This document shows positions 14,008-60,791 of a stretch of DNA of 64,000 nt, piece by piece. Under the pieces are notes generated by a model. It ran no database searches. It had not been told where the DNA came from and was given only the letters and a program-made list of their open reading frames with translations. Positions within the stretch are counted from its first letter, which is position 1. Each line of letters opens with the position of its first letter. The DNA lies in assembly GCA_041666325.1 (NCBI GenBank), contig JBAYHC010000001.1, forward strand, positions 137,708 to 201,707, read 5' to 3'. Origin of the DNA: Patescibacteria group bacterium (GTDB lineage Bacteria > Patescibacteriota > UBA1384 > XYA2-FULL-43-10 > 1-14-0-10-43-13). Position numbers and translations under genes: made by a program.

Positions 14008-14040
14008 ACGGGCCTCCTGCAAAAACTAGTATATCGTATT

Positions 14041-14084
14041 TCGCCCACCTGCATCACCTGGAGCGAAGCGACTGCGGGCAGGTA
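14041..14084. repeat. Copy A of a dispersed intergenic repeat family (core ...CCTGCATCRCCTGGAGCGAAGCGACTGCGGGCAGG...)
   Basis: A 44-nt near-identical core is shared with 15186-15240 and 31636-31692. Confidence 0.8.
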
Positions 14085-14134
14085 GTTCGCGTACCACATT
14101 GCAACCGAGCACCGATTCCGGCCCACAGCAAGAA

Positions 14135-15124
<990 letters not shown>

Positions 15125-15185
15125 TTATCAGGCGAAATACTAAAGTTAAAATCTCACTCCCATGAGCTGTCTCTTGCAATTAGTC

Positions 15186-15240
15186 CTTACGCCCGCCTGC
15201 ATCGCCTGGAGCGAAGCGACTGCGGGCAGGCTTTAAGCCT
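15186..15240. repeat. Copy B of the dispersed repeat (CTTACGCCCGCCTGCATCGCCTGGAGCGAAGCGACTGCGGGCAGGCTTTAAGCCTTA)
   Basis: Identical to copy C over about 50 nt. It is flanked by short CCTTA(C/A)GCC direct repeats. Confidence 0.85.
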
Positions 15241-15258
15241 TACTACTGATGCCTACGC

Positions 15259-28698: not shown

Positions 28699-29280
28699 AT
28701 GTTCGATCACACGAGGTATGTGGAGTTTCACGGAGTGGGCGCCTCCGTGAGGTGCGATGGCAAGCCAGTAGGGCTACTATCCGACATTGCCCCCAACCTG
28801 CGCTGGTTTGAGGTAGGTGCAGGGGCAAAGCTGCTTGCCATCGGGCTGGACAATCTCCAACCGACAGTTCAGCCACTCGACAGACGGCTGAACATGCTGG
28901 CAGCCAAAGCGCAGCCGGGTGAGCTCTGCCCAGTGCCACGCTGGCGCCAGGTGGAAGTTTTCTCCAGCTCCCCGGTCCACGGGGCACGGGAGATCGAACC
29001 TGGCAAGTGGCTCATAGCCAAGCGGCGCCTGGCGCCGCAAAAACAGGATACTGTTACGATACCAGCCGACGGGGTCGGTCAGATTACGCTGGCGATCAGC
29101 AGCCTGCGCCCTGGAGGCGGCAACACCCTGCTCATGGGCGAGATTCGCTTCAACGTAGCCCGGGGAAAAGGACTGACACCTCTCCCGGACAATCAGGAGC
29201 TGCTTCTGTGCAATCCCAACTGGGCAGATTCACTGCCCGCCGACGCCGGCGTCTTCTTTGCCGGTGTACTCAAACGCTGA
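28699..29280 (+). CDS. Hypothetical protein (193 aa) on a GC-rich island (about 62% GC)
   Basis: Strong RBS GAGGGAGGAAG before the ATG. MFDHTRYVEFHGVGASVRCDGKPVGLLSDIAPNLRWFEV... No domain recognised. Confidence 0.55.
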   Translation: MFDHTRYVEFHGVGASVRCDGKPVGLLSDIAPNLRWFEVGAGAKLLAIGLDNLQPTVQPLDRRLNMLAAKAQPGELCPVPRWRQVEVFSSSPVHGAREIEPGKWLIAKRRLAPQKQDTVTIPADGVGQITLAISSLRPGGGNTLLMGEIRFNVARGKGLTPLPDNQELLLCNPNWADSLPADAGVFFAGVLKR

Positions 29281-31608: not shown

Positions 31609-31635
31609 TCCACCTCCAGATACTAGAAATACCGC

Positions 31636-31692
31636 CTTACGCCCGCCTGCATCGCCTGGAGCGAAGCGACTGCGGGCAGGCCTTACGCCTTA
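31636..31692. repeat. Copy C of the dispersed repeat (CTTACGCCCGCCTGCATCGCCTGGAGCGAAGCGACTGCGGGCAGGCCTTACGCCTTA)
   Basis: Identical to copy B except for 2 nt. The core is flanked by CCTTACGCC direct repeats. Confidence 0.85.
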
Positions 31693-32267: not shown

Positions 32268-35200
32268 TTATTGCTTTGTGGCAGGAACCTCTATCTCGGG
32301 ACCGTCCTTGGCCTGACTAAATTGATGCCTCTGCTTAATATATTCATCTTCCGTTGATACTTCGACACGCTGACTTGACGAAGAAGCGCTCGGGACTATT
32401 TGGGACTGAGACTGATCTTGAGCACTCTCGGGATCATATGTTTCTACTCGGCCCGGAGTAGTCGGAGTGCTCTGACCGGAAGTCGCAGCACCAGTCGTCT
32501 CCTCCCATGTGCGCGAAGGGCGAACAAAAGATTCCGGCTGCTGATCAGCTATAGTCGGTGTTGGTATGGCGCCCGCCCCATCTTCACCCTCATCTGAAGT
32601 AGTCACCGTGACGTTGCCAGAACCACCCTCTGCCTCTAGTCCAGTCATCTCCTTCTCAAGCCGTTCTAGTCTCTCTGGACCGTTCGTTGCATAGTACAAC
32701 CTATCGTTTCTATCTCGCTGTGAGATTAGTTCTTCGTGCTCTTTTCTTAGATGTGTAAGCCGCTCTGCTCTTGACTCGGCATTTGTCTCGCCTTGCTGCT
32801 CAAAGCCAACTCTGTGTTTTTCCCTCTCGGTGTCCATCTCCTCTTGCACTCCAGGTTCTGGGTTAGACAACAAGTTAAGTCGTTTTTGTGCTGCTTCCAA
32901 TATCTGACCGCTCTTGGCAGCTTCCAATTCTGCTTGCAACACGCGCTGCCTTAGATTCTCAATGTAACCGGCACCACCTTCGTGCACCGCTGGCTCATCC
33001 GGGTGGCTGCTGGCCCAATCTAATTGCTCCCTGGCCCGAAGAAGTGACTCATCTGCTCTGTCCTTTAGTCCTTGTGCATCTGCAAGAGCGCTGGCAGCCT
33101 CAATTGCCTGCGGTGACTCTGGCGGTGTTATGAGATCATGTTCTTCGACTGCTGTCGCCGGTGTCTCAAGCCTTGACTTATCCAACTCTGACAAACGTTG
33201 ATCATACCAGCCAGCGTTGCTTCGACCAGTGATAAATTCCCAGGCCCGTCTCCAACTTGGCTGATTGTTCTCATGAATCAGCTTGTCAATTTCTATTGGT
33301 GACTGATGATTGATTTCTACGTTTACCCACCTCAAAACCGGATGACCAGGAGCTGTAGAGTGAACAGGAAACATGAGGTGTCTATTGTCGCCATCTGCAA
33401 CAACCCTAATCTCATTCACTCCTGTTCGATCAGCATTATCCATGCGAAGCAGCATATTGCCAACGATATCGCTCAGGTATTTGCTGTTTTGGCCAGCTTC
33501 TCCTCGCATGAGGGCGCCGAGGGCATCTTTACTGATAACAGTTCCACTACTGTAACTCTCGGGTACGGGAGCTGACCCTGAATGATTAGACTCAAGCCAC
33601 TTTAGATATTCGTCCAACTTCGTGGCAGGAAGGAATTCTAGTTTGGTTTTTTCGCTAAAACTTTCAACAGTAATACTTGGTTGCGCCTCTGTCGCTTCGT
33701 TGGCACCCAGTGCGTGGCCATCACCAACTTCTGGCGCCGAGGCCAATTTGACAGGATGCTCCTGTTCATCAACCTCAACTCGAGATCTGTGAGTGTGATG
33801 TGATTCTACCCCACCAGTCCTTGGCGCAAATGGTTTGTCGTCATCTGGCATATACTTAGGCAACTCGGCCATAACCTCTTTCATATCCTGGCCAGGAGTA
33901 ATGTTGCCCGGCATCTCCTTTGCGGTAGCTGCAATCAAAGACTCATCTCTGGAATCAAAATAGCCGCTTTCCATCAATTTTTCTTTTTCTGCTCGGATAG
34001 CAGCAAAATAGTGATTGGTGGTAGGATATGCTTCTGGATTGGCTTTTCTGTGAGTGTCTACGATCTCCTGAGCAAGTCGCCTGGCAGCGCCGGCCCCTGG
34101 TTCATGGAGCACTCCCTCAACCTTCTCCCTCAAATGCAGTACGTCTGTTTTATCTGTGTCACCTGGCACTCCAGATCCATGTGTATCAGGCGCTGAACCA
34201 TGAACAACATCTTTGTTTTCACCCGGATCAGACGGAACAACACCTGCAGGAGCCTCGCCATCAACGTCAACCTCGACCTTATTGCCCGGCTCGGCAATAT
34301 CCTGACTTGGTTGAGGAGAAACCTCTGTAACACGATGGGCAGCGCCTGCTGCTGCGGCTTTCTCCATGCCCAGAAGATCTCTGCCCATGTCAACGTCATA
34401 GCCCAAGAGCTTCTTTCCTAGCAGGAAGGCGATACGGAGGGCAACAACTGTTGCGACACCCTTGCCACCACCAACCAGCGCACTCTTCTTGCGCTCTGTT
34501 TTGAATTGTTCTTGAACCTCGGCCACCTTGCCGAAATCTGTCTCTACATTAAACCTTTTAGCAGGATCAGTGTCGGTGCTGCGCCTAACCATTTCACGCC
34601 TTGCAGCTTCAATAATAGCTGAATGATCAGATGCCAACTTAGAGGTCTCTCGTGTCGAGCGAAGCGCTCCGAGTCCGAGCTGAATAACACCATTGACTGC
34701 CAAGCCGGCAGCGCCAAGACCTGCAACCTTGAGACCAAGAACACCCAGCCCGACAGAGACACCAATTTTGCCCCACCAGGGCATCTTACTGAAGTTATCA
34801 CGTAATTTGTCGAATCCTCTGACGACACCTTTTCTCTTCCCCATGTACTTCTTGTAGTCTTCTTGCTCTTTCCGCAGAAGAGAGGAATCGATTTTCAAAC
34901 CTTTGGCAGTAGAGATGGCCTCGAGTCGTGCGTATACCTCAACAACCTTCTCCTTTGGCATCTCCTTCATTTTGGCCGAGACTTTTCTCGCATCCCAATT
35001 GCCATCCTTGTCCTTGCAATCACCAAAATCGACTGTTAGCGCTGCTTCTTGTCGCTTCATCCAGCCGGCATCAACCGCTGTAGCACCGCCCAGAAAGCTA
35101 GTCATAAGCCTGACACCATTTGCCAATAATCTGCCGCCGGGGATTGCGGCCATACCAACCGTCAGAACACCGGAGACCGTTCTTGCCATGTGATTTCTCT

Positions 35201-35792
35201 GGTAAAACTGCCAAAATCGGGCAAGAGGCCCTCTGTTTTCGATTTCTTTATTAATGACCTCTTGATGTTTCTTGAATTTATCATCGAGCGACCTCTCGAC
35301 GGCCTTGCGCTTCAACTCAAGCTCTTTCTGCTTACGATCCTCCTCTGCCTTGCGTCGCTCGACCTCTTCTCTCGTACGTTTTGCTTCCTCGCTCTCACCC
35401 TGTTGGTCATGTCTCTCACCGTCTGGCGTTCTATCCTGTGCAACATCAGGTGACACTGGCTGGCGCACAGGAGGTTCTACAGTGGCTTCAGGAGAAGCTT
35501 TGCCCGCCTCGTCGTTATTTAGGTCAGGGGCAGTAACACTTGCAGGCACCTCATCATCACCGGGACCTCCGATCACATCGTCTGGCATTCCGAGTGGCCC
35601 AACAGGAGGAATCTCCTCGTTGTTATCCGTAGTAGTATTTCTATCTTGGCCAGCATCAATGTTAGCGACTGCGCCAAACCTTCTATCGTCATCATTAGCA
35701 CCACCAGCAACACTCTCGGGCATACCCAACGGTCCACTCTGAAAAGCCCGCTTAATATCATCTGGCGTTAATCCGCCTTGATTTTCTGACAT
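32268..35792 (-). CDS. Very large (1174 aa) multi-TM glycine-zipper protein of unknown function
   Basis: Acidic disordered N-terminus with duplicated GPLGMP(E/D)xV(A/I)GG motif, then a coiled-coil region (EEAKRTREEVERRKAEEDRKQKELELKRK). Three Gly-zipper hydrophobic segments follow (e.g. WWGKIGVSVGLGVLGLKVAGLGAAGLAVNGVIQLGLGAL). The ~700-aa hydrophilic C-terminal region ends in Ser/Thr/Gln-rich sequence. Confidence 0.8.
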   Translation of the reverse strand: MSENQGGLTPDDIKRAFQSGPLGMPESVAGGANDDDRRFGAVANIDAGQDRNTTTDNNEEIPPVGPLGMPDDVIGGPGDDEVPASVTAPDLNNDEAGKASPEATVEPPVRQPVSPDVAQDRTPDGERHDQQGESEEAKRTREEVERRKAEEDRKQKELELKRKAVERSLDDKFKKHQEVINKEIENRGPLARFWQFYQRNHMARTVSGVLTVGMAAIPGGRLLANGVRLMTSFLGGATAVDAGWMKRQEAALTVDFGDCKDKDGNWDARKVSAKMKEMPKEKVVEVYARLEAISTAKGLKIDSSLLRKEQEDYKKYMGKRKGVVRGFDKLRDNFSKMPWWGKIGVSVGLGVLGLKVAGLGAAGLAVNGVIQLGLGALRSTRETSKLASDHSAIIEAARREMVRRSTDTDPAKRFNVETDFGKVAEVQEQFKTERKKSALVGGGKGVATVVALRIAFLLGKKLLGYDVDMGRDLLGMEKAAAAGAAHRVTEVSPQPSQDIAEPGNKVEVDVDGEAPAGVVPSDPGENKDVVHGSAPDTHGSGVPGDTDKTDVLHLREKVEGVLHEPGAGAARRLAQEIVDTHRKANPEAYPTTNHYFAAIRAEKEKLMESGYFDSRDESLIAATAKEMPGNITPGQDMKEVMAELPKYMPDDDKPFAPRTGGVESHHTHRSRVEVDEQEHPVKLASAPEVGDGHALGANEATEAQPSITVESFSEKTKLEFLPATKLDEYLKWLESNHSGSAPVPESYSSGTVISKDALGALMRGEAGQNSKYLSDIVGNMLLRMDNADRTGVNEIRVVADGDNRHLMFPVHSTAPGHPVLRWVNVEINHQSPIEIDKLIHENNQPSWRRAWEFITGRSNAGWYDQRLSELDKSRLETPATAVEEHDLITPPESPQAIEAASALADAQGLKDRADESLLRAREQLDWASSHPDEPAVHEGGAGYIENLRQRVLQAELEAAKSGQILEAAQKRLNLLSNPEPGVQEEMDTEREKHRVGFEQQGETNAESRAERLTHLRKEHEELISQRDRNDRLYYATNGPERLERLEKEMTGLEAEGGSGNVTVTTSDEGEDGAGAIPTPTIADQQPESFVRPSRTWEETTGAATSGQSTPTTPGRVETYDPESAQDQSQSQIVPSASSSSQRVEVSTEDEYIKQRHQFSQAKDGPEIEVPATKQ

Positions 35793-35800
35793 TTTCCCTC

Positions 35801-36130
35801 CTATTCGGCGAATTCTACTATGAGCTCATTACGCAGTTTCTCTGCTTCCTCTTCAAACATTCTTTCAAAACTTGGTACCTCCTCAAACAAAAACGACTCC
35901 ACTGCTTCAGTGTCGCCTGCTTCTGCCAGGTCAGAAAGTTTTTCCTTCTTGTCATCATCCAAACCCTCAGTTGCTCGCATAAGCGTACGTGTTTGAATGA
36001 GATCCATCATCTTTGCCAACAAAATACCCTTTTCCTCATCTGGCAGATCCGCTGCTCCAATAACAGAAAAAATATCATTTGAGATCTTCTCCTTGAAATC
36101 AACCTGCTGATCCGCATCATCTTGCGCCAT
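35801..36130 (-). CDS. Small highly acidic protein (109 aa), co-transcribed 8 nt upstream of the 1174-aa gene; candidate chaperone or partner
   Basis: MAQDDADQQVDFKEKISNDIFSVIGAADLPDEEKGILLAKMMDLIQ... It is rich in Asp and Glu. Confidence 0.65.
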   Translation of the reverse strand: MAQDDADQQVDFKEKISNDIFSVIGAADLPDEEKGILLAKMMDLIQTRTLMRATEGLDDDKKEKLSDLAEAGDTEAVESFLFEEVPSFERMFEEEAEKLRNELIVEFAE

Positions 36131-40541: not shown

Positions 40542-41261
40542 TCAAGCGATTGTCATGATCCAGATGTACCAAATGAGATATCCGTCCAAGAGAGCGTAAG
40601 TATGCACCAGTCTTCCTTTAATCATTGCCGTTACCGCCCCCATGATTGCAGACGCTGCCTGGTTGTCCCACGGTAGGACAACTCCGGATTGTTGCAACCG
40701 CCACTGCCGATCTTGGAGAGGTAATTCTTCTAACCGTTCTTTGATAGCATCTGGGTCAAATGTATCTACACAAACCCGAAAGACACGGCGATGCGACCCA
40801 CCGATAATAGTACTGGCATTCTCTTCTGCCTCCGGCGAAATACCGCTGAAGTCAAGAACGATTTCCGTCACCATGTCGTCAGCAGTAACGATCTGCGGAT
40901 GCTCAGCCGGGAAATAACCCAAAGTCGAGTTGCCAACTTCCATCCCCAGCTCCTGGCCATAAATCAGGTTCCCAATCACGGGAAAAGTCCGGATCCCCCG
41001 GCCAAGCCCAAACTTCCGTATTGCTTTAGCTAGCATCCCCTCCCAAGGGGCGCCCCAAGGCATCAGAATGTCCTTGCGCGACTTCTCCCACTCCGCCCGA
41101 TCAAATCCTAGCAAATCAAGGAAAGCATCAGGGCTATCGATTGTGTCGGGCACAACCCGATCAATGATCAGTGAGTTTGGCCCGCCCGAATAGCCGATGA
41201 ATCGCCTCACTGCCGCAACATTCACTCCGACCGAACCAGCAAGGTTCAAACACACATTCAT
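40542..41261 (-). CDS. Hypothetical protein (239 aa)
   Basis: No domain recognised. The hydrophobic C-terminus (YLIWYIWIMTIA) may be leader read-through; the start is uncertain. Confidence 0.45.
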   Translation of the reverse strand: MNVCLNLAGSVGVNVAAVRRFIGYSGGPNSLIIDRVVPDTIDSPDAFLDLLGFDRAEWEKSRKDILMPWGAPWEGMLAKAIRKFGLGRGIRTFPVIGNLIYGQELGMEVGNSTLGYFPAEHPQIVTADDMVTEIVLDFSGISPEAEENASTIIGGSHRRVFRVCVDTFDPDAIKERLEELPLQDRQWRLQQSGVVLPWDNQAASAIMGAVTAMIKGRLVHTYALLDGYLIWYIWIMTIA

Positions 41262-41444
41262 ACCACTTTCCCCCTCTCTGTGGTCGCGTGTCCTGATTCA
41301 CAATCATTATTTAATCACACTTTTCCCCACTTGTCCACTAGCAAGTCCACAACCGCTCGCATGGGTATTCTGTCACTTTTCTTCCTTGATCTCCCCAAAC
41401 AGAGTTCGGAAAGACACAGAGACTTAGACGTGCTCCTCCCTTCT

Positions 41445-41475
41445 ACTCTCTACTTTCTACTCTCTACTTTCTGGG
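41445..41475. repeat. Tandem heptamer repeat (TACT[C/T]TC) x4
   Basis: tactctc tactttc tactctc tactttc, read directly. Confidence 0.7.
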
Positions 41476-41477
41476 CA

Positions 41478-41506
41478 AAGAAAAAACGGGCTGGCTAGGC
41501 CCGTCT
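41478..41506 (-). terminator. Terminator for the 70%-GC gene (ACGGGC...GCCCGT plus T-run on the minus strand)
   Basis: Read directly. Confidence 0.6.
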
Positions 41507-41521
41507 CGGTATGTGCCGGTC

Positions 41522-41545
41522 TTCAACCGGTTTTTTGTTTGCCGT
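41522..41545 (+). terminator. Orphan plus-strand terminator-like hairpin (CCGGT-cttca-ACCGG-TTTTTTG) with no obvious upstream plus-strand gene
   Basis: Read directly. Confidence 0.35.
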
Positions 41546-41631
41546 AAATATGGCACCTTCCTCCTTGGAATGTCCCCCGAGGGGGAGCGGCCGCGTAGTT
41601 CGTGCGTCCGCTCCCCACTCAGGGCTGTGTG

Positions 41632-43188
41632 TCAGGCCGCGGCGCCGGCGGGCTCGCCGCGCTGCTTGCGATTGCGGCCGTTGGCGCTCGGCTTGGCGAT
41701 GCCCTCGAGGAGCTCCTTGTCCGCGGGGGACAGGATGTCCCCGATTGTGGCGAGCTTGTCGTCCCCGGCTACCAACCGCACCGTCGGGCCGTCGTCGCCC
41801 TGCTGCACCTCGTCGATGGGCTCGGTGTCGCTGGGCCCGGCCTCTTCGGTGAGGCGGGCTTCTTCGGCGACACGCCGCCTGGCGGCACCGCGGCCGCCGA
41901 TCGGCTTCTCGCGCTCGGCCTCGGTCTTGCGGTCCTTGCCTTTGCCGCTGCCCTTGTCAGGTGCGGACTGAGGCTCGGACGCTGGTGCCGTGGCCGGTGC
42001 TGCGGTCTTCTCTCCCCGGATCTGGGCCAGCAGGCGCTCGCGCCGGGCATCGGCCTCCTGCTTCTGGGCACGGAGGGCCTCGGCAGCAGCTTTGTCGGCC
42101 TCCTCTTTGGCCTGGAGACGCGCTCCGATGGTGCGGCCGGCGGCTTCGCCCTCGCGGTCGAGGGCAGCGAAGGTCTGCCAGGCCGGCTCAAGCGCCGGAA
42201 CGACCTCGGTGAAGGCGCCGTCACTGAAGGCGTCGCGCCCGTTGCGCAGAGCGCCGACGATCGCACCCCACTCGCTGGAGTGGCGGCCGTCGAACGCCCC
42301 GGTCTCCTTGCGGCTGTCCAGCTCCCACTGCGTCTCCCAGATAGCGAGCTGGGCCCGGGCGAAGCTGACGACGTCCTCTTCGGGCACGTCATGGCACATG
42401 GCCACAACGCTGAGGGCCATCATAGTCGCCTCGCGGAGCTTGTCGGGGTCTTCGGCCTTGCGCGCCTCATCGAACAGATCCTGGGTTGCCTGCACGAGAT
42501 CACCCAGATCCTCCTCGCGGCCAAGCTCACGGACAGCATGGCGCGCGATGCCGAGGGCCTTGCGCGGCGCCCTCTCGGCCGGCGGCGGCGGGGTGTTGTC
42601 CCGCTCCTGCCGCTGCTCGCGCACTGGCTGACGCTGCTCGGCCACGATCCGGCCAGTCGGCTCCTCCACCATAATGGTCGGAGCCGTAACGTCCCCCGCC
42701 TTGCGGTAGGGGACGACGCGCGCGGCCTTGCGGGCGCTGCGCACCTCGTCCAGAACCTCGCGAGCCTGGCGCAGAGCCTCGTATCCGGCCCTGTCGTCAC
42801 CATTGCGGTCTGCCCTGCGGGCGGCGCCGATGGCGCTGGCGATCAGGCCGAAATTCCGGTTCCGCTTCTCTTCCCAGCCGGGGAAGGCCCCGGCGGCCTT
42901 GCCCTCGTCGAAGTCTGCCTGGGTGGCCTCGATGGCCACGCCAAGCGCGGAGCGGCGGACGTCGGGTACGTCGGGGCCGCGATACGATCGCGGCTCGTAG
43001 TCCCGACCCTGCGGTTCCTCTTCGCCCTCGATGGCGACGAGGAACTGAGTCAGGGCCCCCATCACTTTCGATACGCGGCCGCTCCGCGTGCGGACCGGCT
43101 CAGCCGAACGATAGTCATCACGCCGGGGCTCCTGCCCCTGGCGTCCTCGCGGTGCAAACGGATCGAACCTGTTGTCGTTACCCATTGA
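41632..43188 (-). CDS. Hypothetical protein (about 518 aa) on a roughly 70% GC island; Glu/Asp/Arg/Ala-rich, no recognised domain
   Basis: Composition on the minus strand (E, D, K, R, A balanced) is protein-like. The fully overlapping plus-strand ORF is L/G/A/R-rich, as expected for an antisense artefact. GGAGG lies 9 nt upstream of the ATG at 43186-43188. The ORF-track start at 43521 extends into AT-rich leader. Confidence 0.55.
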   Translation of the reverse strand, partial: SMGNDNRFDPFAPRGRQGQEPRRDDYRSAEPVRTRSGRVSKVMGALTQFLVAIEGEEEPQGRDYEPRSYRGPDVPDVRRSALGVAIEATQADFDEGKAAGAFPGWEEKRNRNFGLIASAIGAARRADRNGDDRAGYEALRQAREVLDEVRSARKAARVVPYRKAGDVTAPTIMVEEPTGRIVAEQRQPVREQRQERDNTPPPPAERAPRKALGIARHAVRELGREEDLGDLVQATQDLFDEARKAEDPDKLREATMMALSVVAMCHDVPEEDVVSFARAQLAIWETQWELDSRKETGAFDGRHSSEWGAIVGALRNGRDAFSDGAFTEVVPALEPAWQTFAALDREGEAAGRTIGARLQAKEEADKAAAEALRAQKQEADARRERLLAQIRGEKTAAPATAPASEPQSAPDKGSGKGKDRKTEAEREKPIGGRGAARRRVAEEARLTEEAGPSDTEPIDEVQQGDDGPTVRLVAGDDKLATIGDILSPADKELLEGIAKPSANGRNRKQRGEPAGAAA

Positions 43189-43583
43189 ACACAAACCTCC
43201 ACTCCCCTGCCCGACCAAACGGGCATTGCCGGGGAGCTGACCGAAAGTGCCAGCCGTCACCATTGAAGCGGCTAGACTGGCGGGTGTAATGAAAACTTTG
43301 AAAGTGAACTCTTCGGCAAGCCGGCGAAAATCATGCCGGTCGCGAACAAAGTCACTCACTAAAGTTGCTGCTATATTAGCATATTTCCACGTCTCTGTCA
43401 AGACCCATGGCCGTGAATCGAGACGAATCCAGTTAATATCGCCTGTATCGCTAAATATTATGCTGGATATGCACGATCGACGATATCTAGCATAAGACCA
43501 ATTGATAGTACGCAAAAACATGCAAGCATTAAAATGCTTACCGCTGATCAGGTAGTATTATCGCAAAAAAAAGAAATGGGTTA

Positions 43584-45632
43584 TTAGATCAAGCCCTCGA
43601 GTGCGGCGATCTGATCCCTAATCTCGGCCGCACGCTCGAATTCCAGCCGTTCTGCTGCTTCGCGCATGAGTCCTTCGAGCTCGCGAACGACTTTCCTCTT
43701 CTCCTGTGCTGGCAACCCCTTAAAAGAGCGGTTTATTTCTAAGAGCTCTTTTTCTTCCTTCTCAATTTGAGGCTTAAGGGTTTTGGTAATGGTCTGGGGT
43801 GTAACTCCATGTTCCTTGTTGTATCTTTCCTGTAATTTGCGCCTCTCATTGGTCTCATTTATGGCCACCCTCATCGATTCAGTCATCAAATCAGCATACA
43901 TAATTACTTTACCTTCGGAGTGACGGGCCGCGCGACCGATCGTCTGGACGAGCGAGGTGCGGCTGCGCAAGAAACCCTCCTTGTCGGCATCCAGAATCGC
44001 CACAAGCGACACCTCCGGCAGATCGAGTCCCTCGCGCAGCAGATTGATGCCAACCAAAACATCATATTTACCCAAGCGGAGCGAATGCAAAATTTCACTT
44101 CGTTCCAGAGTATCAACGTCAGAGTGAATATAAGAAACCTTAATAAAATTTTCTGTTAGATATTCTGTCAGCTCCTCTGCCATCCTTTTGGTCAGGGTCG
44201 TCACGAGGACACGTTGGCTCCTCTCCACGCGCAACCTTATCTCGCTAATTAGGTCCTTGACCTGACCGGCCGTTTTCCTAACCTCTATCCCGGGATCAAG
44301 CAAGCCGGTTGGACGTATAAATTGACGCACGATACCCTCGCCGAGAACTGATAACGGATTTTCGATTGTGGTGCGACGAGCGTCGGCAACATCCTTCGTC
44401 TCTCGTTCGTCGCTAGGCTTGGTATCGCTCATGCGTAACTCATAGTTACCAGGAGTAGCGGAAACATATATCGTCTGACCTCTCTTCTTGTCAAACTCAT
44501 CAAAACGGAGTGGGCGATTATCAAAAGCAGAGGGCAGACGAAAACCAAAATCGATTAGTTTTTTCTTGCGAGAATAGTCACCAGCATGCATGCCGCCGAT
44601 CTGGGGAATAGTCATGTGTGACTCATCAACAACCAAGAGATAATCCTCGGGAAAGTAATCAAGCAGAGTTGTTGGCGGCTCGCCGGGATTTCTGCGGTCG
44701 AAGTATCGAGAGTAGTTTTCTATACCTGAGCATATTCCCGTCGTCTCGATCATCTCCAGATCATAATTAGTTCGTTGTTCCAACCTCTGCGCCTCTAGCA
44801 ATTTCCCCTCAGAGCGAAGCTCACTCAATCTATTCTCAAGATCGGCTCTTATCTCGCCAAGTGCCACCTTCACTACGCTCTCTGGAGTAATAAAGTGCTT
44901 GGCTGGAAAAACTTCAAACTCAGAAAGCCTACCGATAATCTCGCCGCTTGGCCAAGCAACTTCAGATATTTTCTCGACGACATCACCAAAGAACTCGACC
45001 CTGACCAGATTCTCCGAGTATGCAGGGAAAAGATCGAGAATATCCCCCTTAAGACGAAATGTACCTCGCTTCACCTCCAGGTCGTTGCGCTCGAACTGCT
45101 GTTTGACAAGGCTTGCCAACATATCATCCCGCGGAATAGCCTCCCCGACACGAAAAGTAAAATTAGCCGACTGATAAAACTCAGGTGAACCGATGCCGTA
45201 GATGCAAGAGACGGATGCGACAATAATTACATCGCGCCGAGTCAGAAGCGCGTGAGTCGCGGCGTGGCGCAATCGATCTATTTCATCATTAATAGAGGAA
45301 TCCTTCTCAATATAGGTGTCGGTCGATGGAACATACGCCTCCGGCTGGTAATAGTCATAGTACGAAACGAAATAATGAACTGCATTATCGGGAAATACTT
45401 CCCGAAACTCGTCCGCCAGCTGCGCCGCCAGAGTCTTGTTGTGTGCAATCACAAGGGTGGGTCTTTGCACATTGTTAACGACATTAGCAACCGTAAAAGT
45501 CTTGCCACTGCCGGTCACACCCCACAGGGTTTGATGTTTATTGCCATGAATAAGATTAGCCGTTAGCGCCCTAATCGCCTCCGGCTGATCACCCTTGGGA
45601 GTAAAGTTTGATTTTAATTGAAATTTAGTCAT
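43584..45632 (-). CDS. uvrB: Excinuclease ABC subunit B
   Basis: GVTGSGKTFTVANVV Walker A, helicase motifs and a C-terminal UVR domain. Confidence 0.95.
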   Translation of the reverse strand: MTKFQLKSNFTPKGDQPEAIRALTANLIHGNKHQTLWGVTGSGKTFTVANVVNNVQRPTLVIAHNKTLAAQLADEFREVFPDNAVHYFVSYYDYYQPEAYVPSTDTYIEKDSSINDEIDRLRHAATHALLTRRDVIIVASVSCIYGIGSPEFYQSANFTFRVGEAIPRDDMLASLVKQQFERNDLEVKRGTFRLKGDILDLFPAYSENLVRVEFFGDVVEKISEVAWPSGEIIGRLSEFEVFPAKHFITPESVVKVALGEIRADLENRLSELRSEGKLLEAQRLEQRTNYDLEMIETTGICSGIENYSRYFDRRNPGEPPTTLLDYFPEDYLLVVDESHMTIPQIGGMHAGDYSRKKKLIDFGFRLPSAFDNRPLRFDEFDKKRGQTIYVSATPGNYELRMSDTKPSDERETKDVADARRTTIENPLSVLGEGIVRQFIRPTGLLDPGIEVRKTAGQVKDLISEIRLRVERSQRVLVTTLTKRMAEELTEYLTENFIKVSYIHSDVDTLERSEILHSLRLGKYDVLVGINLLREGLDLPEVSLVAILDADKEGFLRSRTSLVQTIGRAARHSEGKVIMYADLMTESMRVAINETNERRKLQERYNKEHGVTPQTITKTLKPQIEKEEKELLEINRSFKGLPAQEKRKVVRELEGLMREAAERLEFERAAEIRDQIAALEGLI

Positions 45633-45877
45633 GGGCTGAAACTTTATTGGGAAAAGCAGTAATGAAGTGAGGCGATAATGCGGTAAGCTGCAAGGACGGT
45701 TACCATCCCCACGACATTACAGCCATACTGCCCTACTGCTTTATTGCCAAATTTTGCCTTTTCATTTTGAATATCTATTATATGTGGATAACTCCGTTGC
45801 GTCAACGGTTAGCGCCATGATATATCTTGACTAAGTCTGGTACCGACCTTGAATGCCTACGTGTACGAGCCCGCCCG

Positions 45878-45905
45878 GAGGAGGGGGCTCGTTTTTGTAC
45901 TTGAG
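45878..45905 (+). terminator. Hairpin GAGCCC-N11-GGGCTC plus GTTTTT; terminator or attenuator-like
   Basis: Read directly. Confidence 0.4.
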
Positions 45906-45947
45906 AACCTTGACGTGCATCTCGCCACTCATCCATTGACACATAAG

Positions 45948-45980
45948 CCACGGCCATGTTATAAAAGTAGTTATATCTCA
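45948..45980 (+). promoter_or_regulatory. Sigma70-like promoter TTGACA-18-TATAAA at the head of a GC-rich island
   Basis: Read directly. Confidence 0.45.
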
Positions 45981-46126
45981 CTACGCGGGGCCTGCCACAT
46001 GGCCCCCAAGGAGGACACAACCTTGCGGAAATTCGGACAGATCAAGCCGAGTTCGAACGCGGCGCAACGGTGCCACTGGGCCCGCCCCTACTTCAAGCCT
46101 CTACGTGAACATGTGGGGGCAACCCA

Positions 46127-46340
46127 CATGGAATGTGGTGTGATGAGCCACACCGAAGAGTCGGTCAAGACAGTCGCCGCCGAGCGCGGCAGCTTCCGGT
46201 TGAAGGAGAACACCTCCATCGACTGGGAGAGAGTCATGGCCCACGCAGCCGCCAGTCACGCAAGACACAGGGTGGCCAGTGTCCGTATCGCAGAAACACT
46301 GGAAGAGCCGCTCGCCCGAGTGGCATCCGCCGGCACATAG
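46127..46340 (+). CDS. Possible small protein (70 aa) on a GC-rich island, followed by a terminator at 46385-46412
   Basis: MECGVMSHTEESVKTVAAERGSFRLKENTSIDWERVMAHAAASHARHRVASVRIAETLEEPLARVASAGT. The overlapping opposite-strand ORF looks like an antisense artefact. Confidence 0.3.
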
Positions 46341-46384
46341 CCGGCACCGCAAGTTGCTGATTGCCACCTCCCCGGTGGCACCCA

Positions 46385-46412
46385 GAGCCGACGCCCGTCG
46401 GCTCGTTTTTAT
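46385..46412 (+). terminator. Rho-independent terminator GAGCCGACG-CC-CGTCGGCTC plus TTTTTATT
   Basis: Read directly. Confidence 0.6.
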
Positions 46413-46429
46413 TCTCCCCCTTCTACTTT

Positions 46430-48057: not shown

Positions 48058-49383
48058 TTAATCTCTAAATGTCAACTCTGTACGATAGCCTCTTTTGAAA
48101 TCTTCATAGCTCATTTCTTTTTTGCCTTCGGGCTTGACTACATCAATGACCAGTCCAGCTGCTTCAGCCATGTGAGCAGACAGTATTTGCACTCTTTTGT
48201 CCTTAACTATGGTATAGACCTTGGGCCAATCATGGAACGCCCTGATCATCCTCTCAACATCTCGAGCCGAAGTATTGGCATTGACACAACCGTCATCCTT
48301 CTTGATCATCTTGGTATATGTAGCTTTCTTTTCGTTCTGCATGGTCGGCTTAAGCTCGCCGGCAATATAGTATGGCAACGAATCAAGGAGTAATGTCGCG
48401 CCTATATCGGAAAGATAGTCCTTAAGAATCGTTGACGTTTCACCACCCGATAGCTCGACTGCAACTTGGGAGATGATATCGCCCGCATCCAGTTCTTCGC
48501 TTGCCAGCATTAGTGATACCCCTGCCAATTTATCACCATTCAAAATTGTATACTGCACTGGGGCGGGCCCGCGATATCGGGGCAAAAGAGAGGGGTGAAT
48601 ATTAATAACTCCATATTTAGGCAAGCGCAGCAATTCAGGTGGAATTATCTGGCCAAAGTCAGCCATGATGATAATCTCCGGTTTCCATTTCCTGATTTCC
48701 TGGACAATGTTCCCTTCACGGATCTTCTCGGTGCGAATGATCGGCAAGTGTAAATTATGAGCAATCTCGAATATTGCGTTTGTTTCTCTTTCCTCGCCTC
48801 GAATATGAGCCTTGGCATCCCCGGTAACAACGCCGACAATATCGTATTGCTGATCAGTAATAAGCGACTGTAGGGCTGGGGCCCCAAGCGTTCCAGTGCC
48901 TATAAAAACAGTTCTAACTTCCTTAAGATGGTCAACGATCAATGTTGCGTTCAGGTGGTCTGTTTCGTGCTGTAGAACGCGAGCGTGAACACCTTCTACC
49001 TCAAGCGTGATATTCTTACCGTATCGATCCTGTCCTACAACTGTTGCTTTGTCAGGGCGTTTAACCAATATTTCCCTACCAGGAACAGACAGACACCCCT
49101 CAACCATCGCTCTCTGACGACTCGAGTTCTTAACAACTTTTGGATTGCAGACTACTGTGAGTGGAAAACCAGTCAATACAGAATCTTTCTCTGGGATAAA
49201 CTCGGCTACGAAAACGCTCTTCGAGACCCCGACTTGGGGTGCCGCCAAACCAACACCATCGTTGGCTCGCATAGTCTCAATCATATTGTCTATCAGCTGC
49301 TGAAGATCAAAATCAAAATCAGTCACAACCGCAGCTGGCTGGCGCAATATCGGATCGCCTTCTTTTTTGATCGGTAATATCAT
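48058..49383 (-). CDS. def-fmt: Fused peptide deformylase / methionyl-tRNA formyltransferase (def-fmt in a single 441-aa ORF)
   Basis: N-terminal Def motifs GVGLAAPQVG, EGCLSVPG and HETDHL. This is followed in frame by Fmt motifs VFIGTGTLGAPAL and HPSLLPRYRGPAPVQ. Confidence 0.85.
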   Translation of the reverse strand: MILPIKKEGDPILRQPAAVVTDFDFDLQQLIDNMIETMRANDGVGLAAPQVGVSKSVFVAEFIPEKDSVLTGFPLTVVCNPKVVKNSSRQRAMVEGCLSVPGREILVKRPDKATVVGQDRYGKNITLEVEGVHARVLQHETDHLNATLIVDHLKEVRTVFIGTGTLGAPALQSLITDQQYDIVGVVTGDAKAHIRGEERETNAIFEIAHNLHLPIIRTEKIREGNIVQEIRKWKPEIIIMADFGQIIPPELLRLPKYGVINIHPSLLPRYRGPAPVQYTILNGDKLAGVSLMLASEELDAGDIISQVAVELSGGETSTILKDYLSDIGATLLLDSLPYYIAGELKPTMQNEKKATYTKMIKKDDGCVNANTSARDVERMIRAFHDWPKVYTIVKDKRVQILSAHMAEAAGLVIDVVKPEGKKEMSYEDFKRGYRTELTFRD

Positions 49384-49444: not shown

Positions 49445-49485
49445 CACTACCCGCTGGCTCTCACAATATGGGTAGTGTTCGGACA
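49445..49485 (-). terminator. Rho-independent terminator overlapping the RT stop codon (CACTACCC...GGGTAGTG plus TTTTTTTG)
   Basis: Read on the minus strand. It isolates the RT from the downstream def-fmt gene. Confidence 0.7.
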
Positions 49486-50438
49486 TCTATCAAAACCGGA
49501 TGATCAACCGGATTTCGGGATAGCTTTCGCCCTGGTGATTCGGACTGAATCAGGAAGAAGCGCGCCCGGTACTGGTCGTAAAGGCTGATCAATTCTTTTT
49601 CGAGACGGCTTTGGGGTCTTCTTTTCCCCGTGAAGGCAAAGAAGGTACTCATTGAGCCGGAGATCACATTGTGTTTAGGGTGAGATTCCCCCAGCGCCTG
49701 CCGCAACATGCAACAGAGCTCTTTAACCTTCGAGCGCTTAAGAAAGGTCGTTCCATCAGGGTGAATACCAATACCATTAATGAATACGTCACCCTTCTTG
49801 AGATCTAACACCTGGCATTTGTGACAACTCAGTCGAAAACCCACTGAGCGAATGGCTGCTGCCAAAGTCGCTCTCTTTCTCCTACCAACAGGGAACCTGG
49901 AGGAGAAGAGCAAATCATCGGCGAATCGAGTGTAGTGAAGACGGTATTTCTGGCACAGCGTCCGGATAGCCGGGTCGAGATGAACCTTCAAATACAACTC
50001 AAACCAATAGTTTGAGGCAGGGGCCCCAACTACCAGTCCTCCATTTCTGTGCAGGCAATAACGCTGAAGAAAAGTCAAAACCTCTTCTTGCTTGCCCGTA
50101 TACTGCGGGTCAACATCACAAATAGTCTCTGCCAATTTTGTGCCGTCAATACTCTCAAAGGCGCTGGCGATGTCCATCGAGACATAGTAACGGTTCCCGA
50201 GACGAAGATGTGTTCGCAGCAGCGCTGGCGCCGATGACATCTTGACTGAACCGAAACGAACTGCCCAATACGGCCGCCGCCACAGTCTGCGAATGTACCT
50301 CTTGATCTCCGCATGAACTCGACGCATCGTATCATTCGGCTCACCGATCGTTCGCCATTTCTTTCGTCCACTGATCGGATTGACCGCCAGTTTACGAAAG
50401 AAGCGGAAGGTTGGTTCCTCCCGCTGTGTTTTCGGCAT
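49461..50438 (-). CDS. Stand-alone reverse transcriptase (325 aa; retron, DGR or DRT-like, with no maturase or other fused domain)
   Basis: RT motifs are present: KKWRTIGEPNDTMRRVHAEIKRYI (motif 1), YYVSMDIASAFESI (motif 2), GLVVGAPASNYWFELYL (motifs 3-4), RFADDLLF (the YxDD catalytic box) and VFINGIGI (motifs 6-7). Confidence 0.9.
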   Translation of the reverse strand: MPKTQREEPTFRFFRKLAVNPISGRKKWRTIGEPNDTMRRVHAEIKRYIRRLWRRPYWAVRFGSVKMSSAPALLRTHLRLGNRYYVSMDIASAFESIDGTKLAETICDVDPQYTGKQEEVLTFLQRYCLHRNGGLVVGAPASNYWFELYLKVHLDPAIRTLCQKYRLHYTRFADDLLFSSRFPVGRRKRATLAAAIRSVGFRLSCHKCQVLDLKKGDVFINGIGIHPDGTTFLKRSKVKELCCMLRQALGESHPKHNVISGSMSTFFAFTGKRRPQSRLEKELISLYDQYRARFFLIQSESPGRKLSRNPVDHPVLIDVRTLPIL

Positions 50439-50705
50439 CGTGCCGCCCCTTTCTTTCAGCGAACCCGGAGGGGTGGTTTTTTGGAGCCTCCATAGGCTAC
50501 CTCGAACTCTCTAGCTGAGTTTGCGCTTCTCTGAGAAAAAGCACACAGGAAAAAGATTCCTGCGTCTCGGTAAGCTCGTGTCCGAGCCTCCCTCCCTCTG
50601 CCTACGCAAAGGGTTGTGCTTTGGCGCTGTAAGGAACTCCAAAACCTTCCCCTCCAGGTTGCAGCCTGGCCCACACATGAACCAGGCGCCAAGCCCGCTT
50701 ACAGA
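50439..50705 (-). ncRNA. Candidate structured ncRNA of about 265 nt transcribed with the RT (retron msr-msd-like, DRT ncRNA-like, or DGR template region)
   Basis: A dedicated promoter lies just upstream. The region is GC-rich relative to the backbone and abuts the RT ATG. No credible protein is encoded, yet three overlapping 64-78-codon stop-free frames are present. Confidence 0.45.
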
Positions 50706-50708
50706 CGC

Positions 50709-50736
50709 ACTATAGCACATGATGACGACTATTCAA
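50709..50736 (-). promoter_or_regulatory. Sigma70-like promoter (TTGAAT-16-TATAGT) driving the ncRNA-RT unit
   Basis: Read on the minus strand, just after the galE stop. Confidence 0.5.
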
Positions 50737-50749
50737 GGGCAAAAATCTT

Positions 50750-60302: not shown

Positions 60303-60791
60303 CCCCCAAAGCAGACAATAAGCCGAGTTCTGTACCCGCCGCGAAGCGGCGGGACAAAAAAACTTTATGAACTAAAGAACGAAAGAACAGGTGGGAAATC
60401 AACTTTTTAACTATTAACGCCCTGGTTGTTCTTTGGTTTTTTAGTTTTTCGGTTCTTCGGTCCCGATGCTTCGCATCGGGGGATGGCAATCTATCTACGC
60501 GTGAAGACCTCGCATATCTTCCGAGCAGGAATAATGATATGTTCGGCCCACTTCACTTTCACCTAACGAGGCTTGCCACAGACGTACATCGCTGCACGAA
60601 CGCGTGTGCTCTTACCACACGATTTCACCCTTACCGGTCGTGCATAGCACGACTTAGGCGGTTTTTTTTCTGTTGCGCTTTTCTTAAACTTCACAGCCTA
60701 CTTACTCTCGTAAGCGTTATTGCTCTATGGTGCCCGGACTTTCCTCCATCCCGATAACTCGGGACAGTAGCCATCTAATCTACTTCGGGGG
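60303..60791 (-). ncRNA. rnpB: RNase P RNA (bacterial type; about 490 nt with an expanded central/3' region)
   Basis: The minus strand carries GGAGGAAAGTCCGGGCACCATAGAGCA (P4 5' strand), GCAACAGAAAAAAAACCGCC, GGTAAGGGTGAAA...GTGGTAAGAGCACAC and ACAGAACTCGGCTTAT (P4 3' strand). The P1 helix pairs CCCCCGAAGUAG at the 5' end with CUGCUUUGGGGG at the 3' end. The UUCG-capped stem CCCGCCGC-UUCG-GCGGCGGG sits just before the P4 3' strand. Confidence 0.85.

Follow-up and report, generated by a model that had tools for sequence, protein, structure and literature searches.

A GC-rich orphan gene, probably acquired by horizontal transfer, next to uvrB in a Patescibacteria genome

Background

Genes that have entered a genome recently reportedly stand out by an atypical GC content at third codon positions, which in the "alien gene" and amelioration model of Lawrence and Ochman is said to mark arrivals that have not yet reached the composition of the recipient. 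In high-GC bacteria such as Actinomycetota, the taxonomically restricted ORFans of phages, plasmids and ICEs are long, acidic, helix-rich and disordered, lack a family assignment, and have a GGAGG ribosome-binding site and a GC-rich terminator hairpin that has no U tract. Antisense shadow ORFs of high-GC genes are a textbook artefact. The CPR bacteria are thought to be attached to other cells. Genomic islands and single-gene transfers are common in Patescibacteria (Gios et al. 2025, PMC12455944).

In this paper we analyse a GC-rich island in the genome (about 47% GC) of an ultra-small Patescibacteria (CPR) bacterium, a relative of Berkelbacteria found in landfill-impacted groundwater. The island is located between uvrB and a thioredoxin-like gene, within a stretch of 64 kb that was analysed as a whole and is called the window here. 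We set out its composition, gene, flanking signals and relatives, following up a preliminary description that had been made from the sequence alone, and weigh how the island may have arisen.

Results

Composition and limits of the island

A maximum-likelihood fit with two change-points, which has a resolution of about +/-20-30 nt, separated a core of 0.712 GC from DNA of 0.475 GC outside it (Table 1), in agreement with the island of roughly 70% GC described earlier. Between about 41550 and 43150 the GC content of all 100-nt windows is 0.70-0.78, and the segment 41555-43290 reaches 0.698, compared with 0.466 elsewhere in the window. The island stands about 5 sd above local variation (sd of 300-nt windows 0.047) and no 300-nt window outside it exceeds 0.643, so that it is indeed, as had been claimed, the most extreme compositional outlier in the window. 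Milder patches of 0.60-0.64 GC occur elsewhere in the window, and no similarity was found between the island and the remainder.

The edge on the 3' side of the gene is sharp, the change-point at 41574 falling on the base of a GC-rich stem-loop. On the 5' side the core starts about 30 nt inside the coding sequence and is followed by a shoulder of 58-60% GC that extends to about 43330; the 5' end of the gene may therefore have been rebuilt.

Table 1. Features of the island and its surroundings, in positions of the 64-kb window.
Feature	Position	Strand	Basis
Lineage-specific gene, 239 aa, 52% GC	40542..41261	-	Homology and synteny
Tandem repeat, 14-nt unit (TTCTACTCTCTACT), 2.3 copies, 100% identity	41441..41472	none	Tandem Repeats Finder
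Canonical hairpin and T-tract terminator (stem 41507-41483) in host-like DNA, predicted	41473..41507	-	Terminator scan, also in fold
Terminator-like hairpin, 6-bp stem	41515..41541	+	Terminator scan
71%-GC core	41574..43155	none	Maximum-likelihood change-points and GC profiles at 100 nt and 300 nt
Long GC-rich stem-loop right after the stop codon, no U tract	41575..41624	-	RNA fold, inverted repeat I7, change-point
Antisense shadow ORF, 528 aa, not a gene	41602..43188	+	Mirror frame, no Pfam family
ORFan gene, 517 aa, 56.3 kDa, pI 5.3	41632..43185	-	Translation, codon-position GC, homology searches
In-frame stop-free upstream extension, 112 codons	43186..43521	-	Gives alternative 589-aa and 629-aa calls
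Putative 5' leader, about 180 nt, moderately structured	43186..43366	-	RNA fold, dG -73 kcal/mol, z -2.9
Shine-Dalgarno GGAGG, 10 nt between motif and ATG 43185	43196..43200	-	Read from sequence
Candidate sigma70-like promoter TTGACA-17-TAATAT with TG extension	43373..43401	-	Consensus scan, 10/12 matches
Terminator-like hairpin of uvrB	43512..43541	-	Terminator scan

The gene, its coding strand and its start

Long ORFs cover the island on both strands, 528 aa on the plus strand and 629 aa from the first ATG on the minus strand (41632-43521), and the statement that both exceed 500 codons is correct. The minus strand had been taken as the coding one, and several observations agree with this: GC1, GC2 and GC3 of its ORF are 0.76, 0.52 and 0.83, the order GC3 > GC1 > GC2 is kept along the full length, codon-position periodicity runs from about 43130 to the stop, the predicted promoter, Shine-Dalgarno motif, GC-rich stem-loop and terminator all lie on this strand, and the product is modelled with a helical core. 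Such codon-position values point to a gene with an evolutionary past in a high-GC genome, GC3 in the resident genes being 0.42-0.55. C-ending codons are strongly preferred (GCC 50 against GCG 14, CGC 35 against CGG 13). A CAI-like index against the resident genes barely discriminates (0.75 for the island, 0.78-0.80 for resident genes) because the codon bias of the host is weak. On the plus strand the ORF lies in the mirror frame, GC1 (0.83) exceeding GC3 (0.76), and its L/G/A/R-rich product, which matches no family, had rightly been called an artefact.

Gene callers differ on the start and give 517, 589 or 629 aa. The GGAGG ahead of the ATG is present as described; the A of this ATG is at 43185 rather than 43186, and the product from there to the stop at 41632 has 517 residues. 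The 112 codons upstream would be free of stops by chance with a probability of about 0.004. This extension has no codon-position GC pattern, no homologue of it was found, and the ATG at 43521 from which the 629-aa call starts falls in the T tract of the terminator-like hairpin of uvrB. The NCBI annotation of the MAG lists the protein as a "hypothetical protein" (MFA5926883.1 / MFA6531413.1).

Signals flanking the gene

The candidate promoter sits in DNA of 44-47% GC, and the scan that located it returned 6 sites against 0.9 expected in shuffles; transcription would start near 43366. In the fold of the resulting leader, GGGGAG of the Shine-Dalgarno region is paired with an upstream CUCCCC, and a search of Rfam with 41200-43650, leader included, gave no match at E<=1. 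The stem-loop after the stop codon, which has no U tract, may be a donor-type 3' end, and the canonical terminator that follows it would end the island transcript; the fold of 41475-41640 has a dG of -71.6 kcal/mol and a z of -4.6. The terminator scan gave 9 sites, where 3.6 +/- 2.0 are expected.

Both terminators of the preliminary description, one on each strand, were recovered. The plus-strand hairpin has no plus-strand gene upstream to feed it and may be a chance match. The repeat described as four copies of the heptamer TACTYTC is real, with a unit of 14 nt in place of 7 and 2.3 copies in place of four; the island terminator is on one side of it and the 239-aa gene on the other, and its unit has 5 matches at <=2 mismatches in the window compared with 0.31 expected. 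These three elements do not bracket the island as had been thought, since all of them are on the 3' side of the gene, and its 5' side has the uvrB terminator and the sigma70-like promoter.

Homology searches and predicted structure

No relative of the island protein could be detected among some 15 billion catalogued proteins. The protein itself was the sole match both when 5.8 billion clusters were searched by a word index and when 1.84 billion representatives were searched exhaustively with phmmer, which upholds its description as an orphan. There was no match above threshold in Pfam, which was also run on three sub-segments at E<=10, nor in PHROGs, PADLOC or NCBIfam. PADLOC at E<=0.1 gave no defence family for this protein or its 239-aa neighbour. 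By tblastn nothing was found in 50,697 phage records (also at E<=10), 72,556 plasmid records, the GTDB species representatives or IMG/VR, and a sequence search of the PDB gave only noise at E>=0.02 (beta-lactamase, ACP, cytochrome c). Two sub-threshold Pfam matches from the sub-segments, MEKHLA (0.053) and XVIPCD, were treated as chance. An X-Tfe type IV secretion effector (XVIPCD, PF20410) was considered and rejected, the match reaching 13.8 bits against a cut-off of 24.9 bits (E 0.092) over 41 of 101 profile positions; the solved XVIPCD entries in the PDB have no sequence match to the island protein.

A, R, E, G and D are abundant in the protein and no internal repeats were found. It has no hydrophobic segment (highest 19-residue Kyte-Doolittle mean 0.89) and is predicted to be soluble and cytoplasmic, with no signal peptide or transmembrane segment. 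In the single-sequence AlphaFold2 model, residues about 200-393 form a confident all-helical bundle (pLDDT 80-94) that ends in a helix of 69 residues. Residues about 100-156 are helical at lower confidence, and the core is flanked by a disordered N-terminal arm (1-85) and a disordered, charged C-terminal arm (394-517). Foldseek of the model against the PDB and BFVD gave no match at E<0.001; the generic four-helix bundles that it returned (FAT domain, cytochrome b562, talin) were rejected as fold relatives. With low confidence, the protein may be of a non-enzymatic, scaffold or adaptor type and of mobile-element origin.

The locus in relatives

In the three nearest relatives (L086, L087 and L088; UvrB 71-75% identical) the order trmD-uvrB-thioredoxin-like-DUF5679-sugar transferase-GT4-DUF4012 is kept, and only 63-102 nt separate uvrB from the thioredoxin-like gene. 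Neither the island gene nor the 239-aa gene was found at this site, and with a spacer so short both genes must be insertions. The island protein gave no tblastn match in any of the relatives' loci that were fetched, and these loci never rise above 0.60 GC in 500-nt windows. Scans of GTDB genomes with uvrB returned only relatives from other phyla at <=61% identity, of no use for an empty-site comparison, a scan with the thioredoxin-like protein returned only relatives at <=63% identity, and a 24-mer of the uvrB 3' end had no match among metagenome contigs.

The 239-aa protein has a single homologue, 57% identical, in L005 (SRR22387874), where the homologue is followed by a terminator and then by the thioredoxin-like gene. 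The 239-aa gene is the result of an older insertion that L005, a closer lineage, has in common with this genome. It has its own conserved upstream region, no family assignment in Pfam, PHROGs, PADLOC or NCBIfam, and an AlphaFold2 model of pLDDT 36 from a 2-sequence alignment.

The genes around the island are housekeeping genes and not a defence island. At a distance of 6 kb is an orphan retron-like reverse transcriptase (RT), whose leader is strongly structured; a DGR was rejected for it, as the window has no TR/VR-like repeat of >=40 nt. Several family-less, GC-elevated insertions are present within 25 kb of conserved housekeeping synteny.

No tRNA is present in the window, and no mobility family of Pfam (integrase, transposase) was found within +/-10 kb. 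Where the preliminary description had suggested looking for direct repeats or att-like sites at the flanks, only 8-mers are shared, direct or inverted, in the number expected by chance. With an integron gene cassette in mind, the 3' hairpin was inspected by eye for attC cores (GTTRRRY/RYYYAAC), and none were seen. A prophage or ICE remnant was rejected, there being no PHROGs, phage, plasmid or IMG/VR match and the neighbours being housekeeping genes. The RSCU distance to 12 high-GC loci assigned no donor.

Discussion

We consider it probable (about 0.72) that a single foreign gene entered this Patescibacteria genome of about 47% GC by horizontal transfer, its donor being unsampled and of about 70% GC. 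The donor would be a bacterium or one of its mobile elements, and the DNA transferred would correspond to about one transcription unit, with a leader of 58-60% GC carrying GGAGG, the 517-codon coding sequence and the GC-rich stem-loop. The spacer of the recipient would already have held the 239-aa gene when the island arrived. Judging from consensus signals, the gene would now be wired as a monocistronic unit between a near-consensus sigma70-type promoter and a U-tract terminator. Base composition and codon-position GC are deviant and the gene is missing from the syntenic site of the closest relatives, as is usual for islands. Measured against the pace of amelioration, the gap in GC3 makes the transfer a recent one. 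No donor lineage with homologues and an incongruent phylogeny was found, the only match being the protein itself, so that the usual phylogenetic proof of transfer is missing and no donor can be named; an origin in the Actinomycetota would be guesswork based on composition. Events of this type are already known, and such horizontal transfers are ordinary.

An extreme jump in composition and the lack of homologues in relatives would be expected if high-GC reads of another organism had been joined into a Patescibacteria contig, the outcome that the preliminary description had named as its refutation. Four other assemblies, however, contain the locus with both junctions, at 99.97-99.995% identity. 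The five come from different pipelines: two are JGI assemblies, two are per-run Logan contigs, each of its own SRA run, and one is a MEGAHIT-style contig from ENA that is 687 kb long. The contigs measure 120-687 kb and have the island in their interior, and a host-type promoter and terminator, both predicted, abut it. A chimera is thus largely refuted, and we regard it as the least probable of the explanations. It is scarcely more probable that the gene is native and owes its GC to amino-acid content, or to biased gene conversion or another mutational process acting locally. The abundance of A, R, E, G and D does lift GC1, and the milder patches elsewhere in the window are in line with such a process, but amino-acid content cannot account for a GC3 of 0.83, the gene is missing at this site in the relatives, whose loci stay within 0.60 GC in 500-nt windows, the boundary at 41574 is sharp, and the non-coding 3' stem-loop is as GC-rich as the gene.

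That the island is foreign and real but a neutral passenger, too recent to be degraded, unexpressed or useless and due to be removed by deletion bias, is unlikely, though less so than any other alternative. Its GC3 is unameliorated and it has no homologues, hence no sign of conservation. The five assemblies probably represent one clonal population from one site, one sample being a leachate-impacted groundwater well, and their single difference is a synonymous ACC/ACA, so that purifying selection is not measurable; they vouch for the junction but not for the age of the gene or for selection on it. High GC also keeps long ORFs open easily, the longest run in 2000 shuffles averaging 234 codons. 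Against this, the 552-codon open run of the island exceeds every shuffle (maximum 550), a strong Shine-Dalgarno motif and a predicted near-consensus promoter and proper terminator flank the gene, and streamlined CPR genomes as small as this seldom retain some 1.7 kb of junk. We find it improbable that the island gene and the 239-aa gene form one cassette at a hotspot, for instance a novel defence, toxin-immunity or host-interaction module. They lie side by side on the same strand, both are missing from the three nearest relatives, neither has a family, and a retron-like RT is 6 kb away. Yet they differ in composition (52% and 71% GC), a terminator and 370 nt lie between them, and the 239-aa gene keeps its own upstream region and occurs in L005 ahead of the thioredoxin-like gene, whereas no public data hold a homologue of the island. 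PADLOC has no match to either, and the surroundings are not those of a defence island.

There is also a very slight chance that the segment is a processed copy of a foreign transcript, made by reverse transcription, rather than a DNA fragment. The 3' edge of the core (41574/41575) falls exactly on the foot of the terminator stem, as the end of an mRNA would, its 5' edge lies about 30 nt inside the coding sequence as in a 5'-truncated cDNA, and the local DNA fused to it in frame has 112 codons without a stop; the retron-like RT with its structured leader is 6 kb away. This support is coincidental, and the same boundaries would also be expected if selection or deletion had trimmed a DNA fragment. 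If true, a bacterium would have gained a new gene by capturing, through an RT, the mRNA of another species.

If transfer from a high-GC donor is right, the locus is a clean, assembly-independent case of a streamlined CPR genome wiring in one compositionally very distant gene. The donor signature of about 70% GC could hint at a partner or at the mobilome of a neighbour; the donor sequence is absent from public data, and therefore the island cannot yet be used as a host link. The protein, which is 56 kDa in size and alone in its family, has a helical core that is predicted with confidence, and this makes it a candidate for structural genomics; no new mechanism is indicated. The GC-elevated, family-less insertions over 25 kb suggest that this lineage often captures foreign DNA between its genes, a pattern that may be more informative than the island alone.

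Among known systems, the plus-strand 528-aa ORF is a typical shadow ORF, a mirror frame with an L/G/A/R-rich product, and does not differ from others of its kind. The island protein resembles the ORFans of high-GC mobile elements in being long, acidic, helix-rich and partly disordered, with GGAGG, a hairpin lacking a U tract and no family; unlike them it has no tblastn match in the phage, plasmid or IMG/VR records searched. The third-position GC bias is that of the Lawrence and Ochman model, although there are no diverged copies or rate calibration from which to derive an age. Like the islets of Patescibacteria (PMC12455944), the island is of foreign composition in a streamlined groundwater CPR genome, carries cargo of unknown function and interrupts an otherwise conserved gene order; compared with them, it has no identifiable donor or homologue and no mobility gene, and for one gene an offset of some 24 GC points is unusually large.

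Composition and coding strand of the island

The window averages 47% GC, and between about 41550 and 43150 the GC content of every 100-nt interval is 64-78%. With two change-points fitted by maximum likelihood, the core of the island spans 41574-43155, at 71.2% GC compared to 47.5% outside, and a shoulder of 58-60% GC extends beyond it up to about 43330. Windows of 300 nt outside the island have a mean GC of 0.466 (sd 0.047) and none exceeds 0.643; the island is thus the strong outlier that the preliminary description reported.

An ORF scan found frames of more than 500 codons on both strands, as previously noted, and the 552-codon stop-free run is longer than in any of 2000 mononucleotide shuffles (mean 234, maximum 550). 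On the minus strand, GC at the three codon positions (GC1/GC2/GC3) is 0.76/0.52/0.83, and between about 43130 and the stop codon (41632) every block of 30 codons shows GC3 > GC1 > GC2. The ORF on the plus strand reads the mirror frame (0.83/0.52/0.76), and no protein family matched it, which bears out the earlier view that the minus strand codes and the plus-strand ORF is an artefact. The coordinates given earlier were correct within one base; the start codon (ATG) is at 43185-43183 and the GGAGG ahead of it at 43200-43196.

All predicted expression signals of the island lie on the minus strand (see table). The terminators and repeat that had been described as bracketing the island all sit 3' of the gene. 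The pyrimidine motif of the 14-nt tandem repeat reappears near trmD, and its 14-mer, allowing up to two mismatches, has five matches in the window where 0.31 are expected.

Ahead of the SD-linked ATG lie a further 112 in-frame codons without a stop, in 47%-GC DNA (probability about 0.004). This stretch, into which the predicted promoter falls, has neither host-type nor donor-type codon structure, and a search for a homologue of it found none. Gene callers differ on length (517, 589 or 629 aa), and we prefer 517 aa. The 71%-GC core leaves out roughly the first 30 nt of the CDS and stops exactly where the terminator stem has its base, so the 5' end of the island may be a rebuilt one or may consist of intergenic DNA from the donor.

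Positions of the island signals and other features in the window
Feature	Position	Strand	Remarks
uvrB terminator-like hairpin	43541-43522	minus	
Predicted near-consensus promoter	43401-43373	minus	TTGACA-17-TAATAT with TG extension
GGAGG (SD)	43200-43196	minus	
GC-rich stem-loop, 20-bp class	41624-41575	minus	directly 3' of stop; no U tract
Hairpin and T-tract terminator	41507-41483	minus	canonical
14-nt tandem repeat	41436-41472		motif CCCTTCTACT(C/T)TC
Same motif	46415-46429		directly after trmD stop
trmD-uvrB spacer	45633-46429		797 nt
ORF in this spacer	46014-46340	plus	about 108 aa
Predicted terminator of this ORF	near 46385-46412		
Peptide deformylase/methionyl-tRNA formyltransferase fusion (def-fmt)	48058-49383	minus	441 aa
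RVT_1 reverse transcriptase	49461-50749	minus	325 aa
1174-aa and DUF5663 proteins	32268-36130	minus	between GT4 and DUF4012
WD40 beta-propeller protein	1318-2367	minus	349 aa; 59% GC
Family-less ORF	28699-29280	plus	193 aa; 61% GC; downstream of DUF4012
58-nt repeat, three copies	14037-14094, 15185-15242, 31635-31692		78-100% identity
RNase P RNA, bacterial class A	60304-60786	minus	full length; 145 bits

The predicted protein

The product (517 aa, 56.3 kDa, pI 5.3) is rich in A (16%), R (12%), E (11%), G (9%) and D (8%), and its gene strongly prefers C-ending codons. It has no hydrophobic segment or internal repeat. No match was found in Pfam, PHROGs, PADLOC or NCBIfam, no meaningful match among PDB sequences, and none by tblastn against phage, plasmid, GTDB and IMG/VR DNA. 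Both a word-indexed search of 5.8 billion clusters and an exhaustive phmmer search of 1.84 billion representatives returned only the protein itself, and its description as an orphan stands.

A single-sequence AlphaFold2 model (mean pLDDT 58) predicts a helix bundle at residues about 200-393, which score 80-94, with a 69-residue helix at its end; residues 1-85 and 394-517 are modelled as disordered. Foldseek against PDB and BFVD gave nothing below E = 0.02, the matches being generic four-helix bundles. Judging from architecture, our best guess is that the protein would be a non-enzymatic scaffold or adaptor type of mobile-element origin.

Insertion beside uvrB

The nearest relatives of UvrB are Patescibacteria proteins (71-75% identity), with some further matches labelled Berkelbacteria. 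Three relatives' contigs share the gene order def-fmt, S16, KH, trmD, uvrB, thioredoxin-like, DUF5679, sugar transferase, GT4, DUF4012, in which uvrB and the thioredoxin-like gene lie only 63-102 nt apart. The window keeps this order, but the gap is approximately 3.1 kb and holds the island gene and a gene for a 239-aa protein. None of the relatives' loci has a 500-nt window above 60% GC or encodes anything resembling the island protein. The island is an insertion, absent from relatives at a conserved site.

The 239-aa protein has a single homologue (57% identity), on a 1.4-kb contig of another lineage, where it is followed, as in the window, by the conserved terminator, promoter and thioredoxin-like gene. 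Hence the 239-aa gene predates the island, and their arrivals were probably separate. No tRNA, integrase or transposase lies near the island, and the att-like sites or direct repeats suggested for its flanks were not found; the longest words common to both flanks are 8-mers, no more numerous than chance predicts.

Recurrence in other assemblies

Two NCBI MAG records hold the exact protein, as a hypothetical protein of 'Patescibacteria group bacterium'. The gene, flanked by uvrB and the 239-aa gene, occurs in four further records: an ENA assembly (687-kb contig), a JGI assembly (120-kb contig) and two per-run Logan assemblies. Aligned to the window over stretches of up to 21.9 kb, these show 99.97-99.995% identity. 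A chimeric contig, which the preliminary description had raised against its own reading, is contradicted by the recurrence of both junctions in all four, two being from different SRA runs. The JGI sample (3300037810) is from a leachate-impacted groundwater well at a landfill in Southern Ontario, and all these samples probably represent one site and one clonal population. Recurrence thus proves that the junctions are real and does not demonstrate evolutionary conservation. The sole nucleotide difference, at 41746 inside the island, is a synonymous third-position change (Thr; ACA in the window, ACC elsewhere); GC to AT is the direction predicted by amelioration, in one observation.

Other features of the region

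The reverse transcriptase best matches retron-type models (PADLOC, E about 1e-18). Its gene follows a 325-nt leader with a very strong predicted fold (dG -141 kcal/mol, z -5.05) and no Rfam match, and no effector gene adjoins it. The whole unit is an insertion between the epimerase gene and def-fmt, which are 80 nt apart in one relative (L088), and it is possibly a retron-like element carrying an undescribed ncRNA; the def-fmt fusion itself is kept in relatives. The trmD-uvrB spacer (18-184 nt in relatives) holds a 60-64% GC patch and an ORF with AAGGAGG and a predicted promoter (TTGACA-17-TTATAA). This ORF has no Pfam family and no homologue in the relatives' loci, and it appears to be a second insertion with raised GC, on the opposite side of uvrB from the island. 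The family-less 1174-aa protein and its DUF5663 neighbour are another lineage-specific insertion in the conserved block, GT4 and DUF4012 being adjacent in all three relatives (L086-L088). The WD40 gene and the 193-aa ORF were both probably acquired. The 58-nt repeat carries a GC-rich palindrome (GCCCGCCTGC...GCGGGCAGGC) and could be a terminator or a REP/MITE-like element. RNase P RNA is the only Rfam match at gathering level in the window, which has no tRNA gene.

Origin of the island

Foreign composition, real junctions, absence in relatives and a long, uninterrupted ORF with the periodicity of coding sequence are directly observed. We infer that approximately one transcription unit was acquired from a donor with a GC content near 70% that uses SD sequences, entering an intergenic spacer by illegitimate recombination. 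Transcription would start from the predicted promoter and end at the tandem terminators, donor-type then host-type. The unameliorated GC3 suggests that acquisition was recent. The GC-rich hairpin lacking a U tract and the preference for CTC, GCC and CGC are compatible with an Actinomycetota donor, without being diagnostic.

The coincidence at the 3' boundary, the in-frame junction and the retron-like RT 6 kb away would also allow a foreign transcript captured by reverse transcription, a source that we regard as very improbable.

In Patescibacteria of groundwater, frequent genomic islands and single transferred genes have already been documented (PMC12455944). The island is an event of this kind; it is no artefact, and no new mechanism either. 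It stands out by the size of its GC offset, its clean single-gene structure and the lack of any homologue for a protein of 517 residues whose core is predicted with confidence.
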